A DNA stretch of 64,000 bases from an uncultured virus (IMG/VR IMGVR_UViG_3300033148_003000) (taxonomy: Duplodnaviria > Heunggongvirae > Uroviricota > Caudoviricetes). The translations under genes and the position numbers were made by a program. The stretch is from IMG/VR virus record IMGVR_UViG_3300033148_003000. One strand, given 5' to 3'. The notes under the pieces were generated by a model. That model was given only the letters and a program-made list of their open reading frames with translations, ran no database searches and was not told where the DNA came from. Of the stretch, positions 3,007-42,970 are shown one piece after another (position 1 is the first letter of the stretch; each line of letters opens with the position of its first letter).

Positions 3007-3474
3007 TTATATTTCTTTTTGAAATTTAATCAAAGAAATTTTCTCATGTTCAATCTCATTTAATCTTTTTTTAGTTTTTTTCTTTAGATGTTCTCTTATT
3101 TTACTATTAATATTTAAATCTTTACAAAATCCAAATTCATGAGAACCTAATTCCGATGTTTTTACTTCAACTTGAAAGTTTTCACTAATTTCTCCATATG
3201 GATAACATTTAAATATCTGTTCTATATTATTATAATCATTCGTTAATATTATTTTAACATCATATATATCATCTTCTCTATCATTATATTCTTCCTCATT
3301 TAAACTATCTGGATTAATTATTATAGATATATTTATTCCTCTATCTTTAAATAAAAATTTATAAAGACTAACTAATCTCGAAATTGAGAAAGAATATTCA
3401 AATGTATATTCACTTTTAGTAAAAACTTCATTAAGACTTACTATTTGATTTTCACTATTATACTCAATTATCAT
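3007..3474 (-). CDS. Hypothetical protein
   Basis: ORF with AGGAG RBS. Confidence 0.6.
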   Translation of the reverse strand: MIIEYNSENQIVSLNEVFTKSEYTFEYSFSISRLVSLYKFLFKDRGINISIIINPDSLNEEEYNDREDDIYDVKIILTNDYNNIEQIFKCYPYGEISENFQVEVKTSELGSHEFGFCKDLNINSKIREHLKKKTKKRLNEIEHEKISLIKFQKEI

Positions 3475-4861: not shown

Positions 4862-5875
4862 TTATTTCCTTTCTTGTATATTTGATGGTGAAAATCCAAC
4901 AAAATCAATAGTATTGTCAATTTTATTTTCTATTGAAGTAATAGAATTAACAACTTTTTGAGTTAAGTTATTGTATTTGTGACAGTCAGAATCAATGTAA
5001 TCTAAGTGATTTAACACTAAATGAGTTGGTCTATTATACATAATAGCTTGTTTAACAATTTCAGGATCAAAACGACCTACACGTCTCTTTAATTTTGTAA
5101 CAGAAGTGTATTCAACAATATCTTTATCACTTTTAGATTCCTTAGTTAATGTTTCCCAATCAATTTCATTTTTTAAAGGACCAGAATTTCCAGCAACTCT
5201 AATAGGATAAGTTCTTAAGACAAGCACAATTTCAGTTATATCTAAAGGGTTTAAACCAACTTCAGTAACAAAACCTGATGCAGTAGTGTCTCTGCTAGTC
5301 ACATATGGATAATGCGGAGAATGTAATAAAGATAAGCCAAAACCTTGGGTACCTTCAATTACAGCTTTATGTCCTTTATCAAGTTTTTCTCTTAGAAAAG
5401 GAATAACAGGTTTAACAAATCTTTTTAAAGTCACATCATCTTTTGCTAAAATATTGTTATTTCTTCTTATCCTTCTCATAACTGCTGCACCAGTTCCACT
5501 TAACGTAGAACCAATGTTATTTCTTAAATCACTATTTTTTTCATTAATTAAATCATTTTCAGAAATTATCATTGCATTAGGATCAATAATCAATTTTTCA
5601 GGCGTTAATTTTGTAAGTTCTAACTCCTTTAGTAAAATTTTTACATCTATATAACTTCCAGCAGGTAATATACAATAAACATCTTCTAAAATTGCTGCAG
5701 TAGGTAATTGCCTCAAAACAACAGTTTTTCCATAATTGTCAACAACTGTATGACCAGAATTACTACCACCCACCCTAATGACGATATCAGCATTATTTCT
5801 TTTTACCCAAAAATGAGTAACCTTACCTTTACCTTCTGAACCGTATTGACCACCAACTACAACCGTAACACTCAT
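4862..5875 (-). CDS. purZ: Adenylosuccinate synthetase homologue with PurZ/PurZ0 signature (candidate N6-succino-2-amino-dAMP synthase)
   Basis: GGQYGSEGKG (Ser at the PurA Asp13 position), NSGHT, GSTLSG, EGTQG, YPYVTSRD, RTYPIRVAGNSGP, TSVTKLKRR, NHLDY; short 337-aa form. Confidence 0.8.
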   Translation of the reverse strand: MSVTVVVGGQYGSEGKGKVTHFWVKRNNADIVIRVGGSNSGHTVVDNYGKTVVLRQLPTAAILEDVYCILPAGSYIDVKILLKELELTKLTPEKLIIDPNAMIISENDLINEKNSDLRNNIGSTLSGTGAAVMRRIRRNNNILAKDDVTLKRFVKPVIPFLREKLDKGHKAVIEGTQGFGLSLLHSPHYPYVTSRDTTASGFVTEVGLNPLDITEIVLVLRTYPIRVAGNSGPLKNEIDWETLTKESKSDKDIVEYTSVTKLKRRVGRFDPEIVKQAIMYNRPTHLVLNHLDYIDSDCHKYNNLTQKVVNSITSIENKIDNTIDFVGFSPSNIQERK

Positions 5876-6016: not shown

Positions 6017-6961
6017 TTTTATTATCCTTTAAAAACTTTATAAACTCCTGTGTCTTTCTATTACATTTTTCTACAATATTCTTGACAATTTTTTTTATTT
6101 TTAATAATTTTAATTAAATTATCTTTATAAATATTTCCCATTAAAATCTTATCATACATTAAACAATCTTTAAATATTTCACATGGAATTACATCCCCAT
6201 TAACTTTTATAACCAATTTTTCATGTTTTAAACATTCACATTCTCTAGTTAATTTCCAGCCTAATTTTCTTTGTAATCCTAATCCTACTTTAATGTTTTC
6301 TAAACTATCTAATTTAGCTAATTCTATTCTTAAATCTTCTATATCATATTCCAATTTATTTTTGTTTTTTAATGCTCTACCTTGATACACCAAATTTAAT
6401 AATCTAATTTGATCTACGCCCATTATTTGAAGATTTTTAATTTTTTTACTCATATTGATCATATTGATTTTACATGGTACAATATGAACTTCTACATTAT
6501 ATCCATAATATAAAGCTTTTAATATCATATCTCTAGTTGTATTAAAACCACTAGCTACATTAGGTAAATAATGAAATACTAAATTAATATTTCTATCAAT
6601 ATATTTATCTAAAAAAATATCTGTACATCCTGATGTATAAATTGTTAAATTAATATTTTTCTTTATTATTTCATTAATAATTTCAAAAATATTTGGATGA
6701 TTAAATGATTCTCCACCGGATAAATTAATATTTTTTATTCCAATTTTATTTATTTCTTTTATCAATGATTTTATTTTATCGATGGAAATATTATTATAAT
6801 ATTCCCACACAGTACTTTCTGATGAACAATATATACAATCCATTTGACAATGATTGGTTATTTCTAATGTAATTTCTTTATATGTTGACATTATATAAGA
6901 TCCTTCATTTAACATTTTTATTATCCTTTAATAATTTTTGAAAAACTTTATAAACTCCTGT
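6010..6961. repeat. Direct repeat pair (6010-6051 and 6909-6961) flanking the radical SAM gene
   Basis: TTAACATTTTTATTATCCTTT plus AAAAACTTTATAAACTCCTGT in both copies; the second has an 11-nt insertion between the halves. Confidence 0.9.
6061..6915 (-). CDS. Radical SAM protein with SPASM/twitch domain
   Basis: CQMDCIYC (CxxxCxxC), SGGE, C-terminal C...GDVIPC...GNI...C. Confidence 0.9.
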   Translation of the reverse strand: MLNEGSYIMSTYKEITLEITNHCQMDCIYCSSESTVWEYYNNISIDKIKSLIKEINKIGIKNINLSGGESFNHPNIFEIINEIIKKNINLTIYTSGCTDIFLDKYIDRNINLVFHYLPNVASGFNTTRDMILKALYYGYNVEVHIVPCKINMINMSKKIKNLQIMGVDQIRLLNLVYQGRALKNKNKLEYDIEDLRIELAKLDSLENIKVGLGLQRKLGWKLTRECECLKHEKLVIKVNGDVIPCEIFKDCLMYDKILMGNIYKDNLIKIIKNKKNCQEYCRKM

Positions 6962-7080: not shown

Positions 7081-7386
7081 TTATTTAACATGATTTGACC
7101 TTTCAGGTAATAGGTGGTAATATTTACTCACCAAATTATTGTAAAGAACACGATCACTATCAGCTAATTCAGGAAAATATCCTTCATTATCCTTGGCTTT
7201 ATACCAGAACCATTCTAAAACAGTTTCCAATTCTTCTCCAGTTAGAAACACATCTTGTACACTTTGACGCAGTAGATCTTTTTGTTGTTTAATAACACCC
7301 TTTTTATTTTCATTTTGATATTCACGTTTTTCTCGTACTCTATCAACTCTTTCTTTACGTCGTTGTGGGTTTTGTCTTTTAGTCAT
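7081..7386 (-). CDS. Hypothetical basic protein
   Basis: ORF coupled to the upstream gene; Arg/Lys-rich N-terminus. Confidence 0.55.
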   Translation of the reverse strand: MTKRQNPQRRKERVDRVREKREYQNENKKGVIKQQKDLLRQSVQDVFLTGEELETVLEWFWYKAKDNEGYFPELADSDRVLYNNLVSKYYHLLPERSNHVK

Positions 7387-8131
7387 TGTTCAACTCACTA
7401 AACCCCAAATGTTCTTCATAAATATCAATTACCAATTTGTTAGCTAATTTTCGACATGATTTCTTTGAAAATGGGTGTAATTCATTATTTTCAAAATTTT
7501 CCATCAACAGATTAAACTTATTTAATTTTGTGTCAAGTAAATTGTCGATTTCATCATGTAATAAACTACCGTTTTTTATTTCTTTAATTACATCTCGTTC
7601 TTGTAGTGGAAATGTAATCCGACCTGTTGTTATTAATTCTTCACATTCAGACATCAACCTGTATACATGTGAGGCTTTTTTTACTTCTTTATAACAAGTT
7701 CGATTTGGATTGTTATATTTATCCCATTCACTTCTCATATAACCGTCGAAATGTCCAATAAAACTTTTACTGATGAGTTTTTTAATATTGGTCATTAAAT
7801 ATTCACCTAAAGAAGATATTTGTACAATATTAGATTTATTTACAAAACACAATTCGATAATATTTGGATTACCTTTCATAACTAAATTTACAAATTTGCG
7901 TAATTCATAAAACTTTCTATCAATTGCGTGTTTTGTATTACGACCATTTTCATCTTTAGAAACTTCATTACAGTTCCACTCTTCAGTTCTCTCAATCCCT
8001 AAGATATATTCTTTAGAAGGTAAAAATACACCTTGATAATCAACATCAGATTCAGACGTATTTGTACCATAAAGATGGGAACCTGATTTTATTTCTAAAA
8101 TAATTTCGTTATTTGTTTTATTATCTTTCAA
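7379..8131 (-). CDS. Pol-beta-superfamily nucleotidyltransferase
   Basis: GSHLYG...SDVD.QGVF, KGNPNIIE, KKASHVYRL motifs. Confidence 0.88.
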   Translation of the reverse strand: MKDNKTNNEIILEIKSGSHLYGTNTSESDVDYQGVFLPSKEYILGIERTEEWNCNEVSKDENGRNTKHAIDRKFYELRKFVNLVMKGNPNIIELCFVNKSNIVQISSLGEYLMTNIKKLISKSFIGHFDGYMRSEWDKYNNPNRTCYKEVKKASHVYRLMSECEELITTGRITFPLQERDVIKEIKNGSLLHDEIDNLLDTKLNKFNLLMENFENNELHPFSKKSCRKLANKLVIDIYEEHLGFSELNND

Positions 8132-11591: not shown

Positions 11592-12272
11592 CTATAAAAT
11601 CACAATACCAGGATCAACTATTTCTCCGTTTTCTTGTCTTAAATAATTTCCTTCATCTGTTAAAAGAACATTGGCCAATCCTGTGTCAAATATTTCTTGA
11701 CCTTGTAATATTTCACCTTTTTTTATTTTTTCTTTCCAAAAATCTTCATCAAATTCTTGTAAACTCATTTTATTATAAAAATTTAACATTTTTTGATCTG
11801 TTTCAACCAATTTTTTATGATGATTTTCAATAAGCTCTTTATCACCACTTAACTCCACCAATGATGAATTATGAACCATCATCTCTGAATCTTTATAAAC
11901 AACTCTAACATTACCTGCTAAAAAAATCATAGATGCAGCACTCGATCCATCAGCAGTTATAATAGTTTTTATATCACATATCATATTATTTTTTAAATGA
12001 CTACAAATATTTAAACCCACGTTAATCATACCACCATTAGAATTAATAAAAACAGTCACGGGTTCGGGGATATAATCGACAACTGTTTCTTGTTGATTAA
12101 GATCAAAATAATTCACATTATTAAGATGTCTAATTACAGACGTTGCAAGTGGGTATTCTATAGATCCATAAATATTGATTGATCTTTCCGCTATAATTGG
12201 AAATGTGTGATCTTCTTCAAATTTACCTTCATAATTACACAATAATTTGGACATTTTCTTTAGATTGGACAT
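11592..12272 (-). CDS. clpP: ClpP-like serine protease (S14)
   Basis: INSNGG, SSAASMIF (Ser nucleophile region), MMVHN (His), GLAN. Confidence 0.85.
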   Translation of the reverse strand: MSNLKKMSKLLCNYEGKFEEDHTFPIIAERSINIYGSIEYPLATSVIRHLNNVNYFDLNQQETVVDYIPEPVTVFINSNGGMINVGLNICSHLKNNMICDIKTIITADGSSAASMIFLAGNVRVVYKDSEMMVHNSSLVELSGDKELIENHHKKLVETDQKMLNFYNKMSLQEFDEDFWKEKIKKGEILQGQEIFDTGLANVLLTDEGNYLRQENGEIVDPGIVIL

Positions 12273-15200
12273 CTTTGATTTCCTTTTCTATTTGATTATT
12301 ATCTTCTTCAATTTCATTAACTTCTTTAGATTTTTCACTTTCATCAATTTGGTCAATATTTTGATCGACTTGTTTCTTAACTTTTTTCTCAACTATAACA
12401 TGTTTTTGATAACCCGATTTAACATCTTCATTACTGGTTAATTTATTTAATGAAAAGGTTTTTTCAAAATCTTCTTCACTAAAACAACATTTAAATGGTC
12501 CAGCAATATTCTTTATAAATTGATCAACATAAAATGCAATATTGTAATCGGGTTTACCTTTCCCTTTACATTCAGGGCATTCTATTAATTGGTTGTTTTC
12601 AAAAATAACACCTTTATTGGAACAATGCAAACATTTGGGTGCATCTTCTAACAATTTACAGTTTATATGATACACAGTTTTAGTATCAACGACATAACCT
12701 GGTTTTGTAGTTGGTAATAATTCTTGTGTTCCTGTAACTTTTTTAACACATGTTCTACATGGACTCCATGAATTACCAATAACTTCAACACTTATTTTTA
12801 AATCATTTAGATTACCTTGAACAAAATTTTGAATATCTTCATTAGTATCATCTAAATAAATATTATCACTAACTTTCTTACCTGGAATAAAAAACCGTAA
12901 TTCTGTTATTTCGTAGAAATCTTCCAATTTTAATCCTTTAATGATTGATTCTTGTTCAGTTTTATCTGAAAAATGTAAAAGAATATCATCAATTTTATTA
13001 CTATCATTTAAATTCCACAAATAGTTTAACATATATAAATAATCTAATCTAGGTAATTTTTTTGTATTGGAGACATTTTTACGTTGAACTTTCTTTTTAG
13101 TTAATACTTCCCCTTTAGTTTGACATTTTGGGCAATTTTTATATTGATATACTTTACCTTCAATACACTCGGAACAACCTTTATTAACTTTCTCTTTACA
13201 TTCTAAACATTCTGTAAAAATCTTAACTTCTTCTTTAGGAACATAACTTCCTTTAATTTCTGTTCCTAATTTATAATAATGTATCTTATCCCCACTATTA
13301 TAACCATGATCTTTACCAGTTTGATCCTGTTTTTGACGTAATAATTCCATATGGGCTTGTCTACCCTTTAATTTTCTTTCAGTTTCCCAAAGATTTTTAA
13401 TTTTTTGATCATATGTCTCAACAGTTTGAGACAACCCAGTTCTAGTACACATTTTATCGATTGGCATTTGTCTTGATTGAATCTTCAAAATTGTATCACT
13501 ATATATTTTGTTAACTGAAAGGAAATCATCGAAAAATATCCATTTTAAAACATTTTCAAAATGTTGATTTATGTATTCAGATTTAGCCGATGATTTCAAT
13601 CCACCACCCTTGATGGTAATTTTATCATCATAATCTAAAAGACCATAATTTTTAGACTTATAACTCAACATTCTTTTCCAACTATCTTCATATTCTAACT
13701 CAATACCTTCTGTAAGTTTTGAAGATATTTCTTTGGTCATGTTTCCAATATCTAAATCCCTCGAAAGTGGTGTGAACACTACACCGTCAGTATCACAATT
13801 TATTGGAATACAATCTCTGTCTATTAATTCGTCTCTGACTTGTTTGATTAACCGCTGACCTTCAGTAGTTACAAATTCTGCACCTTTAGGATTGTTGAAA
13901 GAGAAAAATTCTGAACCAAAAGCTCCATATAAACTATTTATAACGATTTTTAATGCGCCCTGTAGACCGTCTATGTCTTTATATTCGGACGTATTTTTTA
14001 AACCTTTACTTGATAAATCGTTTTTCTTCTTCTTGGCGTCTAATCTAATGTTAGTCATGTTTCTTAACATTTCTAGACAAACATCTAAATCATCATTAAC
14101 GGGTTTAATCCCATGTATTAACATCTCACTAGGATAAAGTGAAGCTATATCTACCTTATGGACGTTATCAATGATTCCTTCTTGATAACATGCAACAAAC
14201 CCACCTGGATATTTGATTTTATCTAATGGAAGAGGAATTGAATGTCGGTAGTATTTCCCTTTCTCTCTATCGAATCTTGGTCTCAAATATTCTCTAACCA
14301 TCAAAAGTTCCCAAATTGTTGCAGAACCACAATGTGAAAGTTTTTGAAATGTTGATGGTACAATTTGTGCCAATGCAAATGTTGATGTAATCAAGATCTT
14401 GAATATTTCATGAGTTTCCCACGTATCTTCATACGCATATTTAAGAACCTTATCACGATCTTCTAACCAAGTTTGGTATATTTTGTTGCCTTCTATATAT
14501 GTACGTTCTTCATTACCTTGAGAGTTATCATATAAATGAAAATAATCTCTCGCTAAGTCTTTTAATTTAAAATTTTTCATGTCTCTTTTGATAGCATTGG
14601 CACGTTTAACTAAATGAATAACATCTATGATTTGTCTACCTTTTATGTAAACAGGTTGAAAATGTTCAGATGTTTCACCGACTTTTAACACAGATGTATA
14701 ATCAGAATATTGAGTTTTCTCGTGATTTTCTTCAACAACACGACCATAATATGAACGTATATCATGTTCTTCTAAACGTCTACGAATAAACTGATTATCA
14801 AAGTTACTAGAATTATATCCCGAAATTACGTCTGGGTCAAGGTCTTGGATGAGTTCTTCTGTTCGTTGTAATATTTCAACTTCATTGTCTTCATTATTCC
14901 AAACCAACTCTTTTTCACCAAAATTAGTGTAAACAGAATTTAAAAATATCTGATTATCAAAGGGATCAAGTCCCGTACAATTGTGAACAAATATATTATT
15001 AGCTAAAAAATTATGATCTTCATCATCTATTTCTAAATCATAAACTTCTTCAAAAGAACCTTGATTAATAGATTTTATTTTTACAAAATTTACATCATTA
15101 TTTTCATAATAAATTCTTTTAGATTTGTGAATTTGATTTATTTTTTCAACTTTCTTTTCACCAAATTCACCTATAATATTATGAAATTTATAAGCTTGAA

Positions 15201-16599
15201 TACCATTTATATATAAAGTATACATATCTTTATAAGATTCTTTTCTATTATCTATATGTTTAGAATAACCAGAACGTATACCAAATTCTAACAACATATA
15301 TTGAACTTGTTTCATTAAAACAATAGATGTGGTATAATAAACATAACTTAATCTTTCCTCTGTATTTTTAATTGTACCATCACAATAAAATAATCTATTT
15401 AAAAATAATTTTCTATTATCTATAGTAGAATGTATAACTTTTTCTGGAATAAATTTTTCATATGAATATTTACCAAATAATCCATATTTTTTTAATAAAT
15501 CATTTAATGGATGTGTATTATATTCACCACCCTGTTTTCTTCCTATTTTATTAGTAGTTAATCTACAAGTATTATTACCTTTTATAATATTCAATTTTAA
15601 ATTATATTTTTCACATATTTCTTCTAATTCATTAATAACAAATTGAGAAACAGTTGAAATAATACAACTATCTTTTGACTTACACCCTTCAGTTATATAA
15701 TATGCTAAAAATTTTATTTCATTTTCATTTAAATTATATTTATTTGTATCTGTTAATATTTTTGTATTATTAGGTATACAAATATAATCATTTAATTTTA
15801 AATCTTTAACTTTTTTATAACCGTTTTTAGTTAATATTTCATGATTTTTAGTAGCTATTATTTTTTTATTAAATAATGATTTAATTTCAAAAGTTTCTTT
15901 TTTTCCTTTATTTATTTTTCTTTTAACTTTACAAATTTTAATTTTGTTATTTTTATCAACAGATAAAACATGATTATTTGAATCCATATTTTTAATTTTA
16001 ATATCTTTTTTTAATAATGGATCATATATATCTGTATCACCAGACAAACATTCAATATCAAACGTTAAAACTTTGATGTCATCAATTGTTAAACCTTTAA
16101 ACAGTGTAATACCAGTATCGATAAATACTTGTTCATGATACCCTAAACTATATATTTCTTTACCCTGGATGTCACAATTTTTAATATCCCAAATAGATTC
16201 ATGGTCTGTTTTAAAAACTTTATTAAAACAATAAACCACGTCTTTAGGGATTGTCCAAAAATGTGAATAACTATTAATAACTTTTATATAATATTGATAA
16301 TGTAAATTCCCTTTTAGAGGTTCAACATGAAAGATTTTGTTTCCAAAACGGTCTTTATGATTCAACAAAGTTTTTGCGAAGTCTTTAGAATGAACCAAAA
16401 ACCAAGAATTCCACCCGATGGTTTCACTAACAACAAAAGAATTTTTTAAATTTTTAACTGGATCATTACCGTAATTTTTAAAATAACGATAATAAACAAC
16501 TGCTTTAGTTGGTGTAACAGGTTCTAACGATACAACGTTGGTTCGTGGATCTGATCCTGTCAATGATGTAGGTAATTGTTCAGGTAATTGTTTAGTCAT
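12235..16599 (-). CDS. polB: Family B DNA polymerase with intein and Cys-rich C-terminal region
   Basis: ExoI FDIE|CTG, ExoII GYNSSNFD, ExoIII YAYED, motif A DIASLYPS, B KIVINSLYG, C DTDG. Confidence 0.95.
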   Translation of the reverse strand: MTKQLPEQLPTSLTGSDPRTNVVSLEPVTPTKAVVYYRYFKNYGNDPVKNLKNSFVVSETIGWNSWFLVHSKDFAKTLLNHKDRFGNKIFHVEPLKGNLHYQYYIKVINSYSHFWTIPKDVVYCFNKVFKTDHESIWDIKNCDIQGKEIYSLGYHEQVFIDTGITLFKGLTIDDIKVLTFDIECLSGDTDIYDPLLKKDIKIKNMDSNNHVLSVDKNNKIKICKVKRKINKGKKETFEIKSLFNKKIIATKNHEILTKNGYKKVKDLKLNDYICIPNNTKILTDTNKYNLNENEIKFLAYYITEGCKSKDSCIISTVSQFVINELEEICEKYNLKLNIIKGNNTCRLTTNKIGRKQGGEYNTHPLNDLLKKYGLFGKYSYEKFIPEKVIHSTIDNRKLFLNRLFYCDGTIKNTEERLSYVYYTTSIVLMKQVQYMLLEFGIRSGYSKHIDNRKESYKDMYTLYINGIQAYKFHNIIGEFGEKKVEKINQIHKSKRIYYENNDVNFVKIKSINQGSFEEVYDLEIDDEDHNFLANNIFVHNCTGLDPFDNQIFLNSVYTNFGEKELVWNNEDNEVEILQRTEELIQDLDPDVISGYNSSNFDNQFIRRRLEEHDIRSYYGRVVEENHEKTQYSDYTSVLKVGETSEHFQPVYIKGRQIIDVIHLVKRANAIKRDMKNFKLKDLARDYFHLYDNSQGNEERTYIEGNKIYQTWLEDRDKVLKYAYEDTWETHEIFKILITSTFALAQIVPSTFQKLSHCGSATIWELLMVREYLRPRFDREKGKYYRHSIPLPLDKIKYPGGFVACYQEGIIDNVHKVDIASLYPSEMLIHGIKPVNDDLDVCLEMLRNMTNIRLDAKKKKNDLSSKGLKNTSEYKDIDGLQGALKIVINSLYGAFGSEFFSFNNPKGAEFVTTEGQRLIKQVRDELIDRDCIPINCDTDGVVFTPLSRDLDIGNMTKEISSKLTEGIELEYEDSWKRMLSYKSKNYGLLDYDDKITIKGGGLKSSAKSEYINQHFENVLKWIFFDDFLSVNKIYSDTILKIQSRQMPIDKMCTRTGLSQTVETYDQKIKNLWETERKLKGRQAHMELLRQKQDQTGKDHGYNSGDKIHYYKLGTEIKGSYVPKEEVKIFTECLECKEKVNKGCSECIEGKVYQYKNCPKCQTKGEVLTKKKVQRKNVSNTKKLPRLDYLYMLNYLWNLNDSNKIDDILLHFSDKTEQESIIKGLKLEDFYEITELRFFIPGKKVSDNIYLDDTNEDIQNFVQGNLNDLKISVEVIGNSWSPCRTCVKKVTGTQELLPTTKPGYVVDTKTVYHINCKLLEDAPKCLHCSNKGVIFENNQLIECPECKGKGKPDYNIAFYVDQFIKNIAGPFKCCFSEEDFEKTFSLNKLTSNEDVKSGYQKHVIVEKKVKKQVDQNIDQIDESEKSKEVNEIEEDNNQIEKEIKDVQSKENVQIIV
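14980..16050 (-). mobile_element. Intein with LAGLIDADG homing endonuclease (357 aa)
   Basis: Starts CLSGDT, block B TKNH, LAYYITEG and LNRLFYCDG, ends VYDL...FVHN then Cys+1; visibly more AT-rich than the exteins. Confidence 0.93.
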
Positions 16600-23219: not shown

Positions 23220-23824
23220 CCGAATTCAACATCAGATGATAATGTAAGTTCAACTTTCCATTTATCTTCTGAATATATTTTAACTAAATATTCTTCTTTT
23301 TGATTATATGGTAAATTATAACCACATATACCCCAATGATCCTGATTCCAATTAAATTGAATATCATTATCATCATCTAAAATAGATAATATTGTTCCAA
23401 CTTTATCTTCAAAATCTTCTATGATAATATTATTATTTTTATCTAACATATTATTCATAATTTCTAAACATATTTTAGCATATAATTCTTTTTTATCTTC
23501 AGTCACCATCTTCTCCTTTTTCAAAATATACATATTGTGTAGATCTTGGATGTTTTCTACCATCAATCCATGTAGCCTTTATATCCCATTTTAACATTAA
23601 TTTAGTTATTAAATTAACATCTTTATAATGTTCTATATCATTATTTTTCATATTATTACCTTTTATGTTAAAATAATTCATCTTTACCAAAATATGAACA
23701 TATACTAACAGGATTATCTTGACTACCAATATTTATTTGTTGAATATTCCATTTTAACATTAAATCAATAATTAAATTATAATCAAAAGTTTCTTCAACA
23801 GAGATGTAATTATTATCATCTTCT

Positions 23825-24715
23825 TTACTTACCACTACTACCAAATCCTCCTGATCCTCTTGTTGTTGAAGATAATTCATCAACTTCAACAGTTTCAAAT
23901 ATTTCATCTTTTTTTATCAACAATTGTGTGAATCTTTCACCCACACTTGGGCCATATCCTGTCAAATTTCCTACATTAACCAATTGTACCAAAATTTCAC
24001 CACGATAATCGTTATCTATTACACCAACACCGTTGGTTAACATTACTTTACATCGGAGTTCGCTATTATCTTGGTTATTTCTACCATCTTTAAACAATCC
24101 AGACCTAACATAAAGTTCGCAATGATACCCATCGGGTAATTCCACAGCAATACCAGTTCCATATGTTTTACTCTCAAATGGCCCTAATTCAACCATGTTT
24201 TTGGTTAAACCAATCGATTCATCGGAAATACAACTATCTAAATACAAATCATATCCAACACTAAACTCACTCGATCTTTTCAATAAATACTTTCCTCGAC
24301 CAACATTTTTATATTTCATAAGTTTTGTATCTATATTACATTCATCTAAATGGTTGTTAATCTTGATAGTATCAAATACTGTTAATATATCTGATTGAGT
24401 AGGTGCAAATTTTACATTACTACATATTGATTTATCATCAACAATTTCTTCATTATCTACATCTTGTTCAGGATTTTTATATTCATCTTTAACTCTTTTA
24501 GCCAAAATATTTACAACTTCTGTTGTCACATCTTCACCTTGTTCGATACGTTCCATTAATCTAGTATATAAATCACATATTGTTATTTTATTTGTTACAT
24601 TTAATTTATGTAAAGACAACTTAATATCAAATGAACCCAACAATTCATTCATATTGTCTATCATTTTATTTTTTGGCAATTTACTGAATTCTTCTTTTGA
24701 TATATATTTATCCAT
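23825..24715 (-). CDS. dut: Trimeric dUTPase with N-terminal extension
   Basis: All five motifs: GYDL, RSGL, GVIDNDYRGE, GERFTQ, RGSGGFGSSG. Confidence 0.93.
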   Translation of the reverse strand: MDKYISKEEFSKLPKNKMIDNMNELLGSFDIKLSLHKLNVTNKITICDLYTRLMERIEQGEDVTTEVVNILAKRVKDEYKNPEQDVDNEEIVDDKSICSNVKFAPTQSDILTVFDTIKINNHLDECNIDTKLMKYKNVGRGKYLLKRSSEFSVGYDLYLDSCISDESIGLTKNMVELGPFESKTYGTGIAVELPDGYHCELYVRSGLFKDGRNNQDNSELRCKVMLTNGVGVIDNDYRGEILVQLVNVGNLTGYGPSVGERFTQLLIKKDEIFETVEVDELSSTTRGSGGFGSSGK

Positions 24716-25475
24716 GTTTGTTCTCCTTTAATTAGTTTAACAATTTATTTAACAATTTATTTAACTATTAACATTTTTAAATGATAACAACAGTCACTTT
24801 AAAATCCTTTTAAATGATGTTTCCAGACCTCTCATACAACTTTAACCAATTTTAGGTATGTTAGTATACCTAAATTATTCAAAACCTCTTAAATCGTCTT
24901 AAAATTAACTATCTAAATTAATTAATATATTTTTAACATCTTTCATAGCATATTCATATCCTCTTTCAATACCATAAAGATATTCTTTGTTTGCAAACAA
25001 TTTTAAACCATCAATTAACAATAATAATTTATATCTCATTAATGATTCTAATATTTCAATTAATATTTTTTTATATGTAAAATACATTATTTCCTTTCAA
25101 TTATCTCATTCCATTAATTTTCTTTTAACATCTTCCATCGCAGATTCATAACCCTCTTTAACACCATCAATATAAATATAATCATAATATAGGTTAGAAT
25201 CATTTATTTGATGAAATTTATCTGGTATTAATACATCATCAATATATTCCGTAAGTGATATTTTAAATCCATCAATCATCTTTTTAATCTTCCTCTTTTA
25301 ATTCTAATAATCTTTTTCTTACTATTTTTAGATCTCTGTTTATATATTTTCTATTATTCTCAAGAGTTCGAATACTACTCAATAATGACTCTATGAAACG
25401 TTCCCTTTTTAATGTACCGACTTCATAACCTGCATTTAAATACATTAACCCTGTTTTTATACTCATTATTTACCT

Positions 25476-29496: not shown

Positions 29497-29519
29497 TCTT
29501 ATGTCGAACTATTTTGTTA

Positions 29520-29912
29520 TATTCAATTAATCATCAATTAGAAAAGGTGAACTTAGTGTGTTATTTAGTTCTAAACTATTCTTTTAAGATTTTCCCTTTT
29601 AAGATTTACCATCGTACTTCGCTCAGATGAACTACATTTATTAAAATACCAAAAATCGATATAAAATAATTGTTCTCTTTTGCTGTGGACTAAACGGCGT
29701 GGGTTGGGACTTAATACTCCAAATTCAATTTAATATTATGTTAATATTATATCGAAATCTTCGTCGGCTGATCCATACATAAGGACTTACGTTGTTTACA
29801 ACCTTTAGACATTAACCTTTAAATGTTGTTAGTCTAACTGTGTAAACATTCGGCTCGTCTGCAAATAATCAAGGGGAGAAGTTCTAAAGATACCTCATAC
29901 CACAATTTCTAT
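29520..29912 (-). ncRNA. Candidate structured non-coding RNA / long leader
   Basis: No ORF in the track, locally GC-richer, several complementary stems, directly downstream of a near-consensus promoter. Confidence 0.4.
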
Positions 29913-29919
29913 TATACTC

Positions 29920-29948
29920 AGTATAACATAACTAGATATTAATGTCAA
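29920..29948 (-). promoter_or_regulatory. Near-consensus sigma70 promoter for the replication arm
   Basis: TTGACA-17-TATACT with extended TG. Confidence 0.85.
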
Positions 29949-30112
29949 TCCCTATTGTTACAATTCTTAATAATACATATGTGTTCTTTTAAATTTTTGT
30001 TTTTAAACCTGTTCTAAAAGAAGGATTATGTGCTAAATTTTTAGTTTAATAATCATTAAAATTATTTTTTTTTTATTTTAATTTTGAGACTATAGAGTAA
30101 ATATTACGTATT

Positions 30113-30420
30113 ATCTTTTTTTTAATTATTTATTTAGTAATTTATATTAATAAATAATATATTAATAAATAATATATTAATAAATAATATATTAATAAAT
30201 AATATATTAGTAAATAATATATTAATAAATAATATATTAATAAATAATTTATATTTTCTTTTTTTTTAATTATTTATTTAGTAATTTATATTAATAAATA
30301 ATATATTAATAAATAATATATTAGTAAATAATATATTAATAAATAATATATTAATAAATAATTTATATTTTCTTTTTTTTTTTAATTATTTATTTAGTAA
30401 TTTATATTTAGTAATTTATT
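30113..30420. repeat. AT-rich hierarchical repeat array (15-bp TAATAAATAATATAT units in two blocks); candidate origin
   Basis: About 7 plus 5 units; leader TTAATTATTTATTTAGTAATTTATA occurs three times; at the strand switch. Confidence 0.9.
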
Positions 30421-30476
30421 AAACTAATAGGCCAAATTTTAAAAAAAAATAATTTCAATTATTAAAAATTGAGGGG

Positions 30477-30505
30477 TTTACAAAACTTAATAATTGTGTT
30501 ATAAT
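30477..30505 (+). promoter_or_regulatory. Sigma70-like promoter for the packaging operon
   Basis: TTTACA-17-TATAAT with extended TG. Confidence 0.75.
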
Positions 30506-30532
30506 AAAAATATAATAAATAAAAGGTGTATC

Positions 30533-30889
30533 ATGAAAAAAATAAAAAAGAAAAAAATGTTTGGTAATGAATTGTTAATTGAATATGAAAAATTAGCAGA
30601 AGATGCTAGAACAAAAAAAAGAAAAAATGATCTAAAATTAGCCATTAAATGGATAAAAATAAATCGAGTTAAATTAAATAAAACTGAACAATCTATTTTA
30701 ATGAGTACAGATATTACAAATATTCATTATAATGAAATAATATGTGATGTATGTAAAAATACAAACATTGTAACTAATGAATTAAATCCTCAAGAATATC
30801 ATGAACTTGATAAAGAAATAGATAAAGAAATTAAAACTAAACAGGTAATAACTTTACAAAATATTTTGGATAAAAATAATAATGATTAA
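30533..30889 (+). CDS. Hypothetical protein (likely ATG start at 30533)
   Basis: AAGGTG RBS; the track start at 30494 lies inside the promoter. Confidence 0.55.
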   Translation: MKKIKKKKMFGNELLIEYEKLAEDARTKKRKNDLKLAIKWIKINRVKLNKTEQSILMSTDITNIHYNEIICDVCKNTNIVTNELNPQEYHELDKEIDKEIKTKQVITLQNILDKNNND

Positions 30890-31589
30890 TAAACCAAATA
30901 AAAAAACCCCTAATTCATTAGAATTAATACCAGATATATCATATGATACAATCCCAGAAGGTAAAATGCAATTAATGCAACGTAGTGACAGTGTTGCACA
31001 ATTATTAAACACATTACCTTCACTTGAATATGAGGTTTTATTATTAGCAAGTAAAGGTTTATCTTCACAACGCATCACTAAATATATTATGGAAATAATT
31101 GAAGATATTGACGAACCCTATTTTTTAGATAAAAATATTGAAAATATTAGCAATACTGAAATGGAATATGGAATTGAAGAATTTTTACATAAAGGTGAAA
31201 TTAAAGATTATTTATTATTCCTAAAGGAATCAACATCAAATAAAACATACCGAAAATTACAACTAGAAACAATCACATTTGAAGTCTATTCGACAATTAT
31301 AAAGAAAATTAAAAAGGGTGAAATTGAAAATTGGACAATTAATCAATTAATTTCCTTAAGTGATAAAATGTTAAAATCATTACATCTAGAAGAAGACCGA
31401 AATAAAGAAATAACCATGGATGGTATTAAAATAATTGCTAATCATTATAAAAACATCAATATTAATCCAATCATTACTAGTGAAGAAGGTTTTAATTTTC
31501 TTGATGTGAAATATTTTGGTGATAAATTAAGTAATAAAACACCATTCACAAAACCTGAAGATGCCGAAATTATTACACATGATGATTAG
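30882..31589 (+). CDS. Possible terminase small subunit
   Basis: Directly upstream of TerL; HTH-like KGLSSQRIT segment; positional inference. Confidence 0.4.
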   Translation: MINKPNKKTPNSLELIPDISYDTIPEGKMQLMQRSDSVAQLLNTLPSLEYEVLLLASKGLSSQRITKYIMEIIEDIDEPYFLDKNIENISNTEMEYGIEEFLHKGEIKDYLLFLKESTSNKTYRKLQLETITFEVYSTIIKKIKKGEIENWTINQLISLSDKMLKSLHLEEDRNKEITMDGIKIIANHYKNININPIITSEEGFNFLDVKYFGDKLSNKTPFTKPEDAEIITHDD

Positions 31590-31628
31590 TTAAATAGAAT
31601 TATTAAAAATTTTTAGAAGATTGGATTT

Positions 31629-33032
31629 ATGAAAACTTTCAGAAGAAATGTTAAATTAATAGACAAAAATAACCTATCAATACCAGAATATATAGCTTTA
31701 TACAAGGCTAATCCTGCATTATGGGGTTACGAACAAACTACAATCTTCTATGATGAAAATTTGGGAATTGTTAATAAACCTCATTATTACCAATGTTTGG
31801 TAATGAATGGAACATATTCAAACAAGATGACTGTTGTACTTAAGTGTAGACAGTGTTTAGAAGGATCGACATCTATAGATTTACCTTTAAATGAATCAAT
31901 ATCTATAAAAGAGTTATATAAATTATATAAAAATGAAGATTGGTTACCAACAATACTTTCTTTAGACAAAAATAACAAATTGGTAACTGATGAAATAGTT
32001 GATATATGGAAAGTTGGAACAAGATCAGTATTTAAATTATCCTTTGATAATAAATCATATGATTCTATTTCAACACTGGAACATAAATATAACACATCCC
32101 AAGGATATTTAGAATTATCCAAATTAAGAAAAGGTGATTTGGTTATTTGTAAACAAAATAACCAAATGGTTTATAAACCCGTGAAATCAATTGAATATTA
32201 TGGGGAAGAAGAATGTTATGATTTAACTACCAAAATTCATCATAATTACATCGCTAATGGTGTATCAACACATAATTCAGGATTTTCTACAGCGTTGACA
32301 ACTTTATTTGCACATGATGTTCTTTTTGGTCTAATCAAAGGAATTCTTTTTGTATCTATTAGTAAATTTCACGCAGAAGAATTAATGGATAAATTCTATA
32401 AAGTATTAGATTCTATAATAGATCCACGTTTTAAGGTTAGTTATGTGCGTAAAACAAAAACTGAATGTGAATTTGTCAATGGTGTAAAGGCTAGATCTTT
32501 ATCTAGTAATCCAAAAACCATGATAGGGTTTACTGGATCTGTATTATGGGATGAAGCAGGTCAATTTGATAAACAATTGAGTGAAGAAGTTGCAATAAAT
32601 CTTTTCCCATCAATTACAAAACCTGGAACTCGTATGTATGTTGTTTCAACACCATTTGGTAAGAACAACGTATTTCATAAATTATGTACAGAATCAAAAG
32701 AATTATGTAGAAATTTAGATTTAGATGATGTAGGACCTAAACTAATCAAAGTACATTGGAAAGATGTACCTCATGTTATGAAAGAAGCTCATAATTTACG
32801 TGCTCATTGTCCAACGGAAACAGCATGGGATATGGGTTATTGTTTAAAATTTGGTGATGGTACGTTGGATTCATTATTTCCATATGAATTTATGCGTGAT
32901 TATGCATATAGTAATGTTGAAGAAATATTACCATTTAATTTGGAACAATTGGTTTTAATGGATAATTCAAAAGATTATTTAATAAAAGAATCACCTTTGT
33001 ATTTACCAACTTTACAATATCAAGGATTTTAA
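31629..33032 (+). CDS. terL: Terminase large subunit, ATPase part, with mini-intein
   Basis: YYQ, KCRQ|SGFST Walker A after splicing, VLWDEA Walker B, VSTPFG coupling motif. Confidence 0.9.
   Translation: MKTFRRNVKLIDKNNLSIPEYIALYKANPALWGYEQTTIFYDENLGIVNKPHYYQCLVMNGTYSNKMTVVLKCRQCLEGSTSIDLPLNESISIKELYKLYKNEDWLPTILSLDKNNKLVTDEIVDIWKVGTRSVFKLSFDNKSYDSISTLEHKYNTSQGYLELSKLRKGDLVICKQNNQMVYKPVKSIEYYGEEECYDLTTKIHHNYIANGVSTHNSGFSTALTTLFAHDVLFGLIKGILFVSISKFHAEELMDKFYKVLDSIIDPRFKVSYVRKTKTECEFVNGVKARSLSSNPKTMIGFTGSVLWDEAGQFDKQLSEEVAINLFPSITKPGTRMYVVSTPFGKNNVFHKLCTESKELCRNLDLDDVGPKLIKVHWKDVPHVMKEAHNLRAHCPTETAWDMGYCLKFGDGTLDSLFPYEFMRDYAYSNVEEILPFNLEQLVLMDNSKDYLIKESPLYLPTLQYQGF
31854..32276 (+). mobile_element. 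Mini-intein (141 aa, no endonuclease)
   Basis: CLEG start, STLEHK block B, CYDLT...THN then Ser+1; interrupts Walker A. Confidence 0.92.
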
Positions 33033-33067
33033 GAAAAACAAAAGTTTAAGGTTTTAAGAAAAAAAAA

Positions 33068-33739
33068 ATGGGTAAAAGAAATAGTGAAATATTTGAAATA
33101 GTTTATAATGAAGATAATCAACCTTATGAAAAGTCGTACACGGGAAGATATGTCAAAACCGATAATGGGTGGGAAAAACCCTATATTACTCGTGTAATTG
33201 GTTGGGATCCTGGAAAAAAACGTGATATGGCGAGTTTATGTATCCTTGATAAATGTCATGATAACATTTACCGTATTGTTGGTATAATTGAATGGAAAAA
33301 TATGTTTTGGCCATTACAATATCAACATATAGAAAGATTATCAAAAATATTAGAAGTTGATGTTTTTGCATTTGATGCAAACGGACCAGGTAATACATGT
33401 GAAGATACATTTCTCAATTTAGATCATGACGGTAAACCAATTTATCCATATTTAAGTAAAATTAATATGATCCCTGTTTATGCACATAATAGACAATTTA
33501 AATTAGATGCATATGGTGATATCAAAAATTTAATGGTAAAACATAGATTTAAATTTCCAAGAAATTTTAAAGGTTTAGAAGATCAATTTGCTGCGTTAAC
33601 AATATCTAACGAAGGTAAAATATCACACCCTAAAGGAACTTTTATAGATACACCTTCTGCTATTATGATTGCAGCGAGTGTATTTTTAACTAAAAGAGGT
33701 AATGTAAAACATAAAAAATTTAGAATATTAGGTCATTAA
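33068..33739 (+). CDS. terL: Terminase large subunit, RNase H-like nuclease part
   Basis: IGWDPGKKRD, FDANGPG, DTPSAIMIA; between ATPase and portal. Confidence 0.85.
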   Translation: MGKRNSEIFEIVYNEDNQPYEKSYTGRYVKTDNGWEKPYITRVIGWDPGKKRDMASLCILDKCHDNIYRIVGIIEWKNMFWPLQYQHIERLSKILEVDVFAFDANGPGNTCEDTFLNLDHDGKPIYPYLSKINMIPVYAHNRQFKLDAYGDIKNLMVKHRFKFPRNFKGLEDQFAALTISNEGKISHPKGTFIDTPSAIMIAASVFLTKRGNVKHKKFRILGH

Positions 33740-33756: not shown

Positions 33757-35424
33757 ATGGGAATGTTAGAAGAAATTACTCAAATATTTAAATCACCTAT
33801 TGAGAGGTCATCTAAAGATATTTCTGATAATTATCAAATTAAAGGTGGATTTAAAAGAAATAAATATTTAAAAGGTTTACAACCAACTTCATCTAAAAGA
33901 GTTGATACATTTATTTTAGATGATAATTATATCGAAGGTTTACAATTTGATCAAAGAATCGATTTATATAAAAAAATGTATTTGAGTTCAGGTTGGGTAC
34001 AAAGGGGTATAGATGCAATCGTTGCAGATTGTTTAAACACATTTCCTTTGGTTGATATTGTATTTGACGAAGATCGCATGAATAAAGATGTAGATTATGG
34101 TAAAAAGATTTTAAATCTTAAATCTTTGATGGAAAATCCATCTAATGAAATGGGTAAACGTCAATTATTTAGGTTAACATATATGGAATTATTAGCTTAC
34201 GGTAATTCATTTTGGCAAAAGATATGGAATAAATCAAAAAATGAAATATTAAGTTTTGTAAAATTAAGACCTGAAACAATGAGAATTATTCCCAAATTAG
34301 ATAAAATAACTGGTATGACTCAATATTTTTATTTGCAAGAGTTGGGTGAAGACGAAAAAGGGATATTACAATATAAAGTATTTAATCAAGATGATGTGAT
34401 TCACTTTAAAGTTGATAATATCGTTAACCCGTTATACGGAAAATCAAAACTTGATGGTTTAATGTATACAGTATATATGGATCTTCAAGCACAAAAATAT
34501 CAATCAAAATTCTTTAAATATGGGGTTTCACCAGGTTGTATTATCAATATTGATGACACAGGAATGAATGAAGATGAATTAGATTATATCAATGATGTTG
34601 TAAAACAAAAATACAACAATATGAAGGAACCTCATTCACCAATGATTTTAATGGGTAAGAGTATGAAGATCGTTAACGATAAAGATACTCTTTCTGATTT
34701 AGGATTACGTGATTTGAGAGAAGCAGATATACATGAAATTCTCAATATTTTAGGTATTCCACCATTATTATTATCAATAGGTAAATTACAAATACAAAGA
34801 CAAGACACAGCGGTAGATAACTATGTGAAACAAACTGTTGCACCTTTACAAAATTGTTTTTGTGATACAATCAATGAACAACTTATTAAACGTCACTACG
34901 ATGAACCTTCAATTATTTTGACAACAGGTAGTCAAATTGTACCAGGAACAAACGATGCAGCAGACTTCGTAAAGACAGTTATGCAAGTTGTTCCAATGAC
35001 GTTTAACGAAGTTAGAGAAAGAGTTGGTTTAACACTCTTAGAAGAAGGTGGATCAGAATTCTTAATATATACACCAAATGGAGTTGTTCCACTTAATTAT
35101 CACTTTAATTTTGAAGATGATCAGGATGACCCAGAACGTAAATATACTTTAGATGCTAAAGGAAGAGCCATAGATCCTAAAAAAATGGTTTCGACTATTA
35201 ATCTAAAACTGGGACAAAAAATTAAAAGAGAACAATTTAAATTGTCTTCATGTAATAATAGAACATCATCTTTAAATTTTAATAAACAAATAATCAAACT
35301 TGGTGAAATACAACGTGAAAGAGATAATACAAATGAAAAAGATTATTATCAAAATAGTTTAGATAATTTAAAATTACAAACCAACAAAATTGGTAATTCA
35401 AGATCTAGAAAAGTGTGTGTGTGA
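33757..35424 (+). CDS. Portal protein
   Basis: YGNSF, LRPETM, DVIHFK, LYGKS, FFKYGVSPG, LGIPP, TFNEVRE. Confidence 0.9.
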   Translation: MGMLEEITQIFKSPIERSSKDISDNYQIKGGFKRNKYLKGLQPTSSKRVDTFILDDNYIEGLQFDQRIDLYKKMYLSSGWVQRGIDAIVADCLNTFPLVDIVFDEDRMNKDVDYGKKILNLKSLMENPSNEMGKRQLFRLTYMELLAYGNSFWQKIWNKSKNEILSFVKLRPETMRIIPKLDKITGMTQYFYLQELGEDEKGILQYKVFNQDDVIHFKVDNIVNPLYGKSKLDGLMYTVYMDLQAQKYQSKFFKYGVSPGCIINIDDTGMNEDELDYINDVVKQKYNNMKEPHSPMILMGKSMKIVNDKDTLSDLGLRDLREADIHEILNILGIPPLLLSIGKLQIQRQDTAVDNYVKQTVAPLQNCFCDTINEQLIKRHYDEPSIILTTGSQIVPGTNDAADFVKTVMQVVPMTFNEVRERVGLTLLEEGGSEFLIYTPNGVVPLNYHFNFEDDQDDPERKYTLDAKGRAIDPKKMVSTINLKLGQKIKREQFKLSSCNNRTSSLNFNKQIIKLGEIQRERDNTNEKDYYQNSLDNLKLQTNKIGNSRSRKVCV

Positions 35425-39718: not shown

Positions 39719-40081
39719 ATGTTAAACAATGTTAGTATATATGATATAAATCAAGAAGATTTGTTTTGTTTAAATAAACAAATAGATTTTGTGGATTATT
39801 TATCAAATTTATTTGGTAAAGAACATTATTTAATAAATACTTCAGAATATGAAAAAATTATTAAATACGTTACATTTGTAAGTAAAAGATATGAACCCAA
39901 AGTTGATGTGAGTAGATGTAGAATTAATTTTAAAGATTTTTATAAAAATCTTGATATATTTTCTACAAAATATCCTCATCATAATAAAAATAAAGAAATT
40001 ATTTCGTTTAATGAACTTTCTAAAAAATGGCAACAAATTTTTATTAATTCTAGTAAATTTAAAAGGAGTAAAAATGTCTAA
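39719..40081 (+). CDS. Hypothetical protein
   Basis: Co-oriented ORF with AAGGA RBS. Confidence 0.5.
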   Translation: MLNNVSIYDINQEDLFCLNKQIDFVDYLSNLFGKEHYLINTSEYEKIIKYVTFVSKRYEPKVDVSRCRINFKDFYKNLDIFSTKYPHHNKNKEIISFNELSKKWQQIFINSSKFKRSKNV

Positions 40082-41156
40082 TAAACCTAAAAGGGGTAGA
40101 CCTGCTAAAATTACCCACGAAATGTTAATGAAAATAGTGTACCTGAAAAACAGATATAAGGAAAATGGTATCAAATATTCCCAAATAGCTAAAATTTTAC
40201 AAAAAGACTTCCAGTTGTTGACAATAGTTGGTTGGGAATCTTGTAAGCTGGCTTATGAACAATATTTACAAGGGGAAGAACAAAAACAACAAAAAGACCA
40301 AAACTATGATATATCACACAATCCAAAATCAAAAAAGATTTATCAAGACTTGTCAAAGTTGGAAACAATCAAAATTGAGTTGATAAAAAAACCCAATTTA
40401 TTGGGTTTATTTGATGAAGATGAAATACCTAAGAATTTAAAATGGTTAATATGTGGTGATTTTCAGATTCCATTTCATGATCGTAAATGTGTTGATGAGT
40501 TGGTGAAATTTGTGGAAAGAGAAAGACCACATTTGGTAATATTTAATGGGGATATAACTGATTTTTATTCATTGAGTAAATACACAAAAAATCCACAAAT
40601 GAAACAAGAAACCCAATTATATGATGAGTTGAAACTTGAAGCACAGATATATGAAAGAATAAATCGGGCTAGTCCAACCACAAAAATTGTCAAAAAAGTT
40701 CGTGGTGGTAATCATGAATATCGTCTATTTAGTAGAACCTACACACAAGTTCCTGAGATTTCAGATTTCGTGTATTTAGAAAAAATGCTTCATAATGTAT
40801 GTTATGAAGAAAATATCCCAATCAATATATTGATCAGTGAAAACATCAACGATTATTTAGGTAAATTATCAATCAAACATGTTGGATCATTGACAAAATA
40901 TGGTGCAAATAAAAATATAGAAAATACATCATATTCACAAGCTGTTAATCATTCTCATAGATTGGTAATTATTGTTACAAAACATAAAGATAGTGGAGAA
41001 GTGATATTCTCATTGGAGTGTGGATGTATGTGTAAAGACCCACAAGGATATAGATCAGATGTTGGTGTTCATAGAGGATTTATGTATGGAATATTAAATA
41101 CAAAAACATTTTTATTGCAACCTCATATGAAAGTGTTAGAATACTTGGATTATTAA
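40074..41156 (+). CDS. Calcineurin-like metallophosphoesterase with N-terminal DNA-binding region (likely start 40074)
   Basis: GDFQIPFHD, NGDITD, GNHE, NHSH; KRGRP and HTH-like N-terminus; AAGGAG RBS. Confidence 0.85.
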   Translation: MSNKPKRGRPAKITHEMLMKIVYLKNRYKENGIKYSQIAKILQKDFQLLTIVGWESCKLAYEQYLQGEEQKQQKDQNYDISHNPKSKKIYQDLSKLETIKIELIKKPNLLGLFDEDEIPKNLKWLICGDFQIPFHDRKCVDELVKFVERERPHLVIFNGDITDFYSLSKYTKNPQMKQETQLYDELKLEAQIYERINRASPTTKIVKKVRGGNHEYRLFSRTYTQVPEISDFVYLEKMLHNVCYEENIPINILISENINDYLGKLSIKHVGSLTKYGANKNIENTSYSQAVNHSHRLVIIVTKHKDSGEVIFSLECGCMCKDPQGYRSDVGVHRGFMYGILNTKTFLLQPHMKVLEYLDY

Positions 41157-42581: not shown

Positions 42582-42873
42582 GAGAAACAACATGGATTTA
42601 AAATCATACGAAATCAAACTAATTATAGAAAATTTAAAAAAAGAAATTCATTTAATAAATGTAGAAATAGATTGTTTAACTGATAAAGATAGAAATAATA
42701 TGTTTAAAATAAAAGATATATTAGAATAAATAAATTAGAAAATGACGAATACTATTTACAATTAAAATAAAAACACTCTTAGAAGTAAATCTGGTACAAA
42801 ATTTTACAGTAAACACCTTAGAACTATAGGTGATACCAAAATTTTTTAATAATTTAAAATTTATTTATTTTTT

Positions 42874-42900
42874 AAAAAAAAAAAGACCCGTTATGGGTCA
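42874..42900 (-). terminator. Intrinsic terminator at the convergence point
   Basis: GACCC/GGGTC stem followed by 11 T on the minus strand. Confidence 0.8.
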
Positions 42901-42970
42901 TAGAGGAGAGGAAATTTAGTTTTAATTAAAATAATTAACTAAATAATTAACTAAATAAGTTTATTTTTAG

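Follow-up and report, generated by a model that had tools for sequence, protein, structure and literature searches.

Adjacent genes for the ATPase and nuclease halves of the large terminase point to a two-chain enzyme in a phage clade

In the 64,000-nt stretch of DNA from the uncultured Caudoviricetes virus IMGVR_UViG_3300033148_003000 (IMG/VR; hereafter the window, by which we mean the whole of this stretch), the large subunit of the terminase (TerL) appears to be encoded by two consecutive open reading frames (ORFs) on the + strand, ORF1 for an ATPase chain and ORF2 for a nuclease chain, with 35 nt between them. The original prediction, made from the letters of the DNA, had offered two accounts of this junction: a ribosome hop between matched codons, or a natural two-chain TerL, with a duplication proposed as the origin of the two subunits. 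The features of the locus are listed below with reference to L001, a relative found by word-index search through its 221-aa homologue of ORF2 (55% identical) and the only locus to emerge from our metagenome scan.

31629–33032, + strand: putative TerL ATPase chain gene (ORF1); precursor of 467 aa, 326 aa after intein removal; assigned by homology to L001 and by its Walker B motif
31854–32276, + strand: putative mini-intein in the ATPase P-loop (aa 76–216, 141 aa), with C76 first and H215-N216 last, followed by S217
32865–33005, + strand: C-terminal tail of the ATPase chain (aa 413–459), predicted to dock on the nuclease chain and holding the invariant block DSLFPYEFMRDYAY
33006–33029, + strand: eight window-specific C-terminal codons of ORF1 (aa 460–467) with no L001 counterpart, the L001 protein ending at the residue aligned to L459
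33027–33043, + strand: first copy of a near-repeat, identified by repeat comparison and holding the TTT TAA of the ORF1 end
33033–33067, + strand: 35-nt spacer between the TerL genes, with TAA at 33047 and 33055
33048–33051, + strand: AAGG resembling a Shine–Dalgarno (SD) sequence, read from the DNA, ending 16 nt before the ORF2 ATG
33052–33068, + strand: second copy of the near-repeat, from the same comparison, including a run of ten A (33059–33068) that runs into the ATG
33068–33739, + strand: putative TerL nuclease chain gene (ORF2); 223 aa; RNase H-like fold (AlphaFold2 model, Foldseek)

The DNA of the junction, as seen in the sequence and in a print of its frames, agrees with the original prediction in every detail. 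ORF1 ends in CAA GGA TTT TAA, with the stop at 33030–33032, and GGT TTT AAG AAA AAA AAA ATG follows at 33050–33070 in the frame of ORF2, which is −1 relative to that of ORF1 and has its ATG at 33068. Every frame is closed by a TAA, at 33030 in the ORF1 frame, at 33047 in the ORF2 frame and at 33055 in the third. Skipping the 26 nt from 33026 to 33051 joins the two frames (33068 − 33021 − 26 is divisible by 3, and the remaining codons are free of stops), and the AAGG does lie 16 nt 5′ of the ORF2 ATG.

The near-repeat at this junction is 17 nt long, with 16 of 17 positions identical between copies and a spacing of 25. Its 12-mer core has only two sites in the 64 kb, where 0.25 would be expected, and two or more matches were seen in 3 of 100 shuffles. 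Recurrence of the last sense codon in the frame of the next gene, before its ATG, was observed in two of 28 same-strand neighbour pairs (ORF1/ORF2 and one other), and an in-frame TTT open to the ATG arose in 733 of 20,000 shuffles of the 35-nt spacer (3.7%). Taken alone, the matched TTT codon is only mildly unusual.

The assignment of ORF2 came mainly from its modelled structure and its homologues. Direct searches with ORF2 gave no Pfam match at E ≤ 0.01 (Terminase_6C included), nothing meaningful in a sequence search of the PDB, no tblastn match against isolated phages and a weak PHROG TerL match. Its AlphaFold2 model, built with seven homologues (predicted local distance difference test, pLDDT, 79.6), placed TerL nuclease domains at the top of a Foldseek search of the PDB (44 matches at E ≤ 1e-3), among them those of P74-26 (5tge), G20c (5m1f) and T4 gp17 (3cpe). 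Terminase_6C was detected in four of the five ORF2 homologues scanned with Pfam (P0002, P0004, P0005 and P0006). D47 and D103 were invariant in all seven aligned rows, and a C-terminal Asp (I/D-D-x-P) was present in all six full-length ones. ORF2 is thereby predicted to fold as a TerL nuclease. The exact ORF2 product is on record from three contigs.

Searches with ORF1 itself gave no terminase match in Pfam and weak TerL matches in PHROG (2.6e-4 and 3.6e-4). Beyond the intein, its C-extein aligns over 275 aa with the L001 ATPase ORF at 64% identity; the product of that ORF, P0013, has Pfam matches to Terminase_6N (4.4e-6), LAGLIDADG_3 and Intein_splicing. The Walker B motif LWDEAG (ORF1 aa 306–311) and the flanks of the P-loop are invariant between the two. 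Moreover, tblastn of the C-extein retrieved 22 phage records at E ≤ 1e-3, with terminase-named features under 13 of the 15 matches listed and the other two in unannotated records. By these sequence criteria, ORF1 encodes a TerL ATPase whose P-loop is interrupted by a mini-intein; on our own reading, Walker A would consist of K72-C-R-Q joined to S217-G-F-S-T after splicing. The 467-aa product is on record in two variants (466/467 identical) with the same end residue, from one and two contigs.

The putative intein has the residues expected of one, with an N-terminal Cys (C76), a C-terminal His-Asn pair (H215-N216) and S217 as the +1 nucleophile. Pfam Intein_splicing matched ORF1 at 1.4e-8 with 35.1 bits, 0.7 bits below the curated cut-off of 35.8, and PDB inteins matched it down to E 1.9e-6. 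L001 (4010–6004) carries a much larger, LAGLIDADG-bearing intein at the identical P-loop site, as judged from the alignment with P0013, and the comparison of the two fits loss of the homing endonuclease in the lineage of the window. A second intein of the same phage lies in a 1454-aa family B DNA polymerase ORF (12235–16599, − strand), which contains an insertion matching Intein_splicing and LAGLIDADG_3.

We then compared the split with its counterparts in relatives, as the original prediction had suggested. L001 has the same gene order as the window (two small genes, ATPase with intein, nuclease, portal). The ATPase C-exteins are 64% identical, the nuclease chains 55% and the portal proteins 57%. 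Its ATPase ORF of 664 aa ends in TTA TGA, and the ATG of its nuclease gene overlaps this stop by 4 nt (ATGA), with no spacer, repeat or matched codons. The ATPase alignment reaches the last L001 residue at L459 of the window, which has eight further codons and the 35-nt spacer; an alignment of the two junctions at the DNA level was too diverged to read.

A HMMER search with ORF2 across 1.84 billion representative proteins yielded 10 matches at E ≤ 1e-3. The five best homologues besides the window's own protein are 159 (a fragment from an 874-bp contig), 217, 221, 253 and 225 aa long, at 31–55% identity, and all five align from their own residues 3–18 onward, as stand-alone proteins. Only two of the matches are fused TerLs by Pfam (439 aa; E 3.8e-4), matched in their second half at residues 252–428 and 264–341. 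All seven aligned nuclease chains start with a Met within a few columns of each other. The word-index search revealed no longer, fused relatives of ORF2, which is weak evidence by that method. A second locus, L002, returned by the scans of viral contigs, was discarded as a chance word match inside a sigma-factor-like ORF beside an unrelated full-length T4-like TerL.

Thus L001 and the five nearest homologues are likewise split or stand-alone, and we regard this comparison of sequences as the decisive evidence of the analysis. It indicates that the split and the separate start of the nuclease chain are both old features, conserved in the clade. Because the split is common to homologues down to 31% identity, it is probably older than the repeat specific to the window.

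A canonical single-chain TerL combines Pfam Terminase_6N and Terminase_6C, and solved examples include T4 gp17 (3cpe), D6E (5oee), Sf6 gp2 (4iee) and HK97 (6z6d). The window resembles these in having an ATPase half with a P-loop and a Walker B Asp-Glu, an RNase H-like nuclease half with its acidic residues, and an adjoining portal gene; it differs in that the halves are separate genes and that the ATPase half carries an intein. The two domains do not share one polypeptide here: stops close all frames, L001 is split alike and the nearest homologues stand alone. Both halves nevertheless look functional, with the ATPase motifs, the nuclease fold and the acidic residues kept at 55–64% identity. 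Around 92 residues lie between the two Pfam cores, as opposed to roughly 10–20 in the fused proteins P0010 and P0011, and the break falls in the middle of this stretch.

These observations suggest, with a probability that we put at about 0.8, that phages of this clade encode their large terminase in two genes and produce it as two separate chains. The natural two-chain TerL of the original prediction is thus supported by the split shared with L001, the stand-alone homologues and the common start Met. Under this reading, both chains would be translated separately off one transcript. The product of ORF1 would become the ATPase chain after protein splicing of the mini-intein had completed the P-loop, and ORF2 would give the nuclease chain from its own ATG at 33068. 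Initiation on ORF2 could be independent, on the A-rich leader with its poorly placed SD, or could result from re-initiation by ribosomes that terminate 35 nt upstream; as ORF2 has no well-placed SD, one of the two, the A-rich leader or re-initiation, is probably needed. That ribosomes can slide and re-initiate on polycistronic mRNAs is described in PMC11194080. No terminator-like site was found between 30000 and 36000 by a consensus scan, the only method used for this purpose, which fits co-transcription of ORF1 and ORF2. A promoter scan of the window gave 47 matches, fewer than the shuffle mean of 56.9, and is uninformative on a promoter for ORF2.

The two chains would then associate non-covalently, the conserved ATPase tail packing on the nuclease domain and rebuilding a TerL-like unit to act together with the product of the neighbouring portal gene. 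We modelled ORF1 residues 217–467 together with ORF2 and obtained a score of 0.80, with 0.00 for the best of three controls; the mark passed by this model is reached by 116 of 157 solved complexes and by 2 of 215 mismatched pairs. The runs agreed in at least 68% of contacts, and the pLDDT of the partner was 77 or higher. The interface placed with confidence comprises ORF1 413–453, containing the block DSLFPYEFMRDYAY that is invariant in L001, and the last eight, window-specific residues lie outside it. As for the near-repeat with its matched TTT, it would represent a small local tandem duplication at the boundary of an already split gene.

Several points weigh against a two-chain enzyme. DNA context was available for one relative, L001; the other stand-alone homologues are proteins only, with their upstream genes out of view, and scans of viral contigs and of genome contigs found no further relatives with DNA context. 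ORF2 has no well-spaced SD: among the 56 ORFs of at least 120 aa in the window, 32 have an SD-like core 4–9 nt upstream, 19 lack one in the 30 nt before their start, and no ORF other than ORF2 has it at 16 nt. Its start lies 35 nt past the upstream stop, without an overlap of the L001 type, so that efficient separate initiation is not obvious. The junction does present a take-off-like TTT with its stop and a landing-like TTT of the kind that few shuffled spacers contain. Finally, the complex model may have passed by recalling the intramolecular packing in solved fused TerLs, and it is evidence of likeness, not of binding.

In the literature searched we found no characterised natural two-chain TerL, just one unexplained remark, on Parabacteroides phage phiPDS1, and cases of terL split by introns. 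In phiPDS1 (MN929097), two coding sequences (CDS) are annotated as "terminase large subunit" (23502–24515 and 24608–25054); the second encodes just 148 aa after a gap of 92 nt, compared with 223 aa and 35 nt in the window, and tblastn of ORF2 against phages detected no sequence relation to it. The authors assign the TerL domains to two CDS and do not decide on a cause, suggesting another codon table or an assembly issue; the phiPDS1 passages of the paper do not report conservation of the split in relatives (PMC10773633).

In the Jug jumbo phages, group I introns interrupt terL and RNA splicing joins its fragments again, according to passages of PMC12880540. The TerL genes of the window and L001 resemble such interrupted genes in carrying inteins, phage terL being a frequent target of selfish elements. 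Unlike in the Jug phages, the domain boundary holds only 35 nt in the window and a 4-nt overlap in L001, and Rfam at gathering thresholds, which like ARAGORN returned nothing in the window, found no intron anywhere in it. An arrangement of genes in pieces caused by a free-standing homing endonuclease was also considered and rejected, as no endonuclease ORF lies between the halves at either boundary.

The closest analogy in logic is the split topoisomerase of Firehammervirus phages, which, in passages of the preprint by Manning and Atkins, is present without a bypass cassette, its pieces lying apart in the genome and the split being attributed to a past MobA insertion. As in that case, an essential phage enzyme would be kept here as two encoded pieces, with conserved terminal extensions that are thought in the preprint to be functionally relevant. 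The enzyme is a different one, and between the TerL halves of the window there is no sign of a mobile element.

For some actinophages, phage annotation guides give the ATPase domain and the nuclease domain of the terminase as separate genes, and on that account a two-gene TerL has probably been seen more often than it has been described.

The junction could also act as a recoding site superimposed on the split, where either a 26-nt hop or two +1 shifts would let a fraction of ribosomes make a fused TerL. We consider this quite improbable. If it were true, the phage would have two forms of its packaging enzyme, one fused and one of two chains.

A further proposal, which we rate as quite unlikely, is that a recent tandem duplication of 25–26 nt broke a fused TerL in this lineage and thereby gave rise to a two-chain enzyme. 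The repeat is real and local, and skipping 26 nt restores a continuous frame, as such an event would predict. L001, however, is split at the same aligned position without any repeat, and the stand-alone homologues down to 31% identity place the split before the repeat, unless independent splits occurred repeatedly at the same residue. Of the original claim that a duplication created a two-subunit terminase, the two-chain enzyme is therefore retained, and the duplication as its cause is not.

There is also little likelihood that the split results from faulty assembly or sequencing of low-complexity A/T DNA, or that it marks a TerL pseudogene in a defective element. The junction is indeed of low complexity, with its run of ten A, and the authors of the phiPDS1 paper name an assembly problem as a possible cause of their own two-CDS TerL in the passage cited above. 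Against this, a single indel could not fuse the ORFs, as all frames are blocked; the same protein ends recur in several contigs, including the one-residue variant; and the split is common to L001 and the other stand-alone homologues. Decay in turn is at odds with two open ORFs whose catalytic motifs are conserved and with the densely coding phage DNA that surrounds them.

The ribosome hop of the original prediction is no more plausible than an artefact. In this scenario, the peptidyl-tRNA-Phe would leave TTT at 33027–33029, slide over 26 nt and re-pair with TTT at 33053–33055, giving some fused TerL, possibly beside separate chains. The junction does share with the T4 gene 60 cassette (criteria taken from passages of PMC11194080 and of the Manning and Atkins preprint) the matched take-off and landing codons, a stop (TAA, 33030) directly after the take-off codon and an AU-rich gap. 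An in-frame landing TTT is uncommon in shuffled spacers, the blocked frames leave a hop or a multi-step shift as the only routes to fusion, and the same preprint reports, for a clade of Aeromonas phages, a bypass of 20 nt whose stem-loop is reduced.

Most other elements of such a cassette are missing or misplaced. We found no take-off hairpin: 33021–33058 folds at −2.8 kcal/mol (z −0.58; 51 of 200 shuffles were as stable), 33027–33052 at −0.4 kcal/mol, and 33000–33100 has a z of −0.06. The AAGG ends 1 nt before the landing codon, versus 5–7 nt in cassettes of the gene 60 type, and the last 30 residues of ORF1 contain no basic KKYK-like signal as in gene 60, although a different nascent-peptide signal is possible. 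No mobile-element context is recognisable either. The matched codons sit in a local repeat that a tandem duplication could explain, and the same kind of codon recurrence occurs in 1 of the 27 other gene pairs of the window. Above all, L001 is split alike, with its ATGA overlap and none of the cassette elements, and the nearest homologues all stand alone with a common start Met, so that, unlike in gene 60, the downstream part has a conserved ATG of its own. The hop from TTT to TTT is thus left unsupported.

Less probable still are two successive +1 shifts, one at each T TTT AAG copy and each after AAGG(A), which would yield a fused TerL with a short extra linker. Ribosomes would slip from TTT at 33027 to TTT at 33028, translate eight +1-frame codons as far as TTT TAA at 33052–33057 and slip there a second time into the ORF2 frame. 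Between 33022 and the TAA at 33055 the +1 frame has no stop, each repeat copy has four T's before AAG and is closely preceded by an SD-like AAGG(A), and this path accounts for the presence of two repeat copies, of which the hop has no need. It nevertheless requires two rare events in succession, and the SD-like element abuts the shift codon, in contrast to the spacing of ~3 nt at the prfB shifty stop. The motif is absent from L001, and the start Met and stand-alone homologues favour separate translation.

Two other readings were rejected: stop-codon reassignment, as TAA is the commonest stop in the 56 ORFs of at least 120 aa (TAA 36, TAG 16, TGA 4) and the code is standard, and a single frameshift fusing ORF1 and ORF2, as every frame is blocked.

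TerL is usually viewed as a single polypeptide whose covalent linker lets the ATPase motor and the headful or cos nuclease communicate. A clade that holds the halves as separate genes down to 31% identity would offer a natural test of the need for this covalent link, for which docking of the conserved ATPase tail on the nuclease, as seen in the model, may act as a substitute. There are also consequences for annotation. Neither TerL half of the window reaches the Pfam terminase threshold on its own, and pipelines that seek one long TerL, or that rely on TerL as a marker for phylogeny, will overlook the enzyme or get its size wrong. For all its hop-like appearance, the junction is most likely a normal border between two genes rather than a site of ribosome hopping, which advises caution against over-calling recoding in AT-rich phage DNA.

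The window is a piece of a large phage contig, its proteins being on record from contigs of up to 165,479 bp, and with a GC content of ~20–35% it represents an AT-rich phage. The surrounding DNA is densely coding. Genes in the window include those for the intein-bearing family B DNA polymerase, a DNA ligase, a primase-like Toprim protein, an RNase H, a dUTPase, a ClpP-like protease, a Baseplate J protein and an amidase. From ~30.5 kb, the order on the + strand is two small genes, ORF1, ORF2 and the portal gene, the last of these as follows.

33757–35424, + strand: portal protein gene, directly downstream of ORF2; Pfam Phage_portal 1e-35, phrog_12 1.1e-38, 57% identical to the L001 portal protein

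The portal protein had no tblastn match among isolated phages. The two small genes 5′ of the ATPase gene (30494–30889 and 30882–31589, + strand) are syntenic with 3012–3350 and 3343–4017 of L001 and have no Pfam match; the second gave a weak PHROG match only, to a family of unknown function. Judged by position, one of the two may encode the small terminase.

Genes switch strand at 29497–30493 and at ~42600–42970, where the GC skew and the AT skew also change sign. Nowhere is the window richer in AT than in the divergent region near 30 kb (GC 0.199 for 30001–32000), which also contains the best promoter-like match of the scan (30477–30505; 11/12 with TG). A replication block on the − strand (4862–5875, 6061–6915 and 7379–8131) holds genes for an adenylosuccinate synthetase-like protein (5.4e-50), a radical SAM protein and RlaP, an RNA-repair nucleotidyltransferase. 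At 39719–40081 and 39951–41156 (+ strand), two ORFs in different frames overlap by ~130 nt if a TTG start is assumed, the longer matching Metallophos; the overlap may reflect a later ATG start at 40012 or a frameshift. Finally, a 132-aa protein encoded at 2174–2572 (− strand) matches the MqsA antitoxin and HTH_3.

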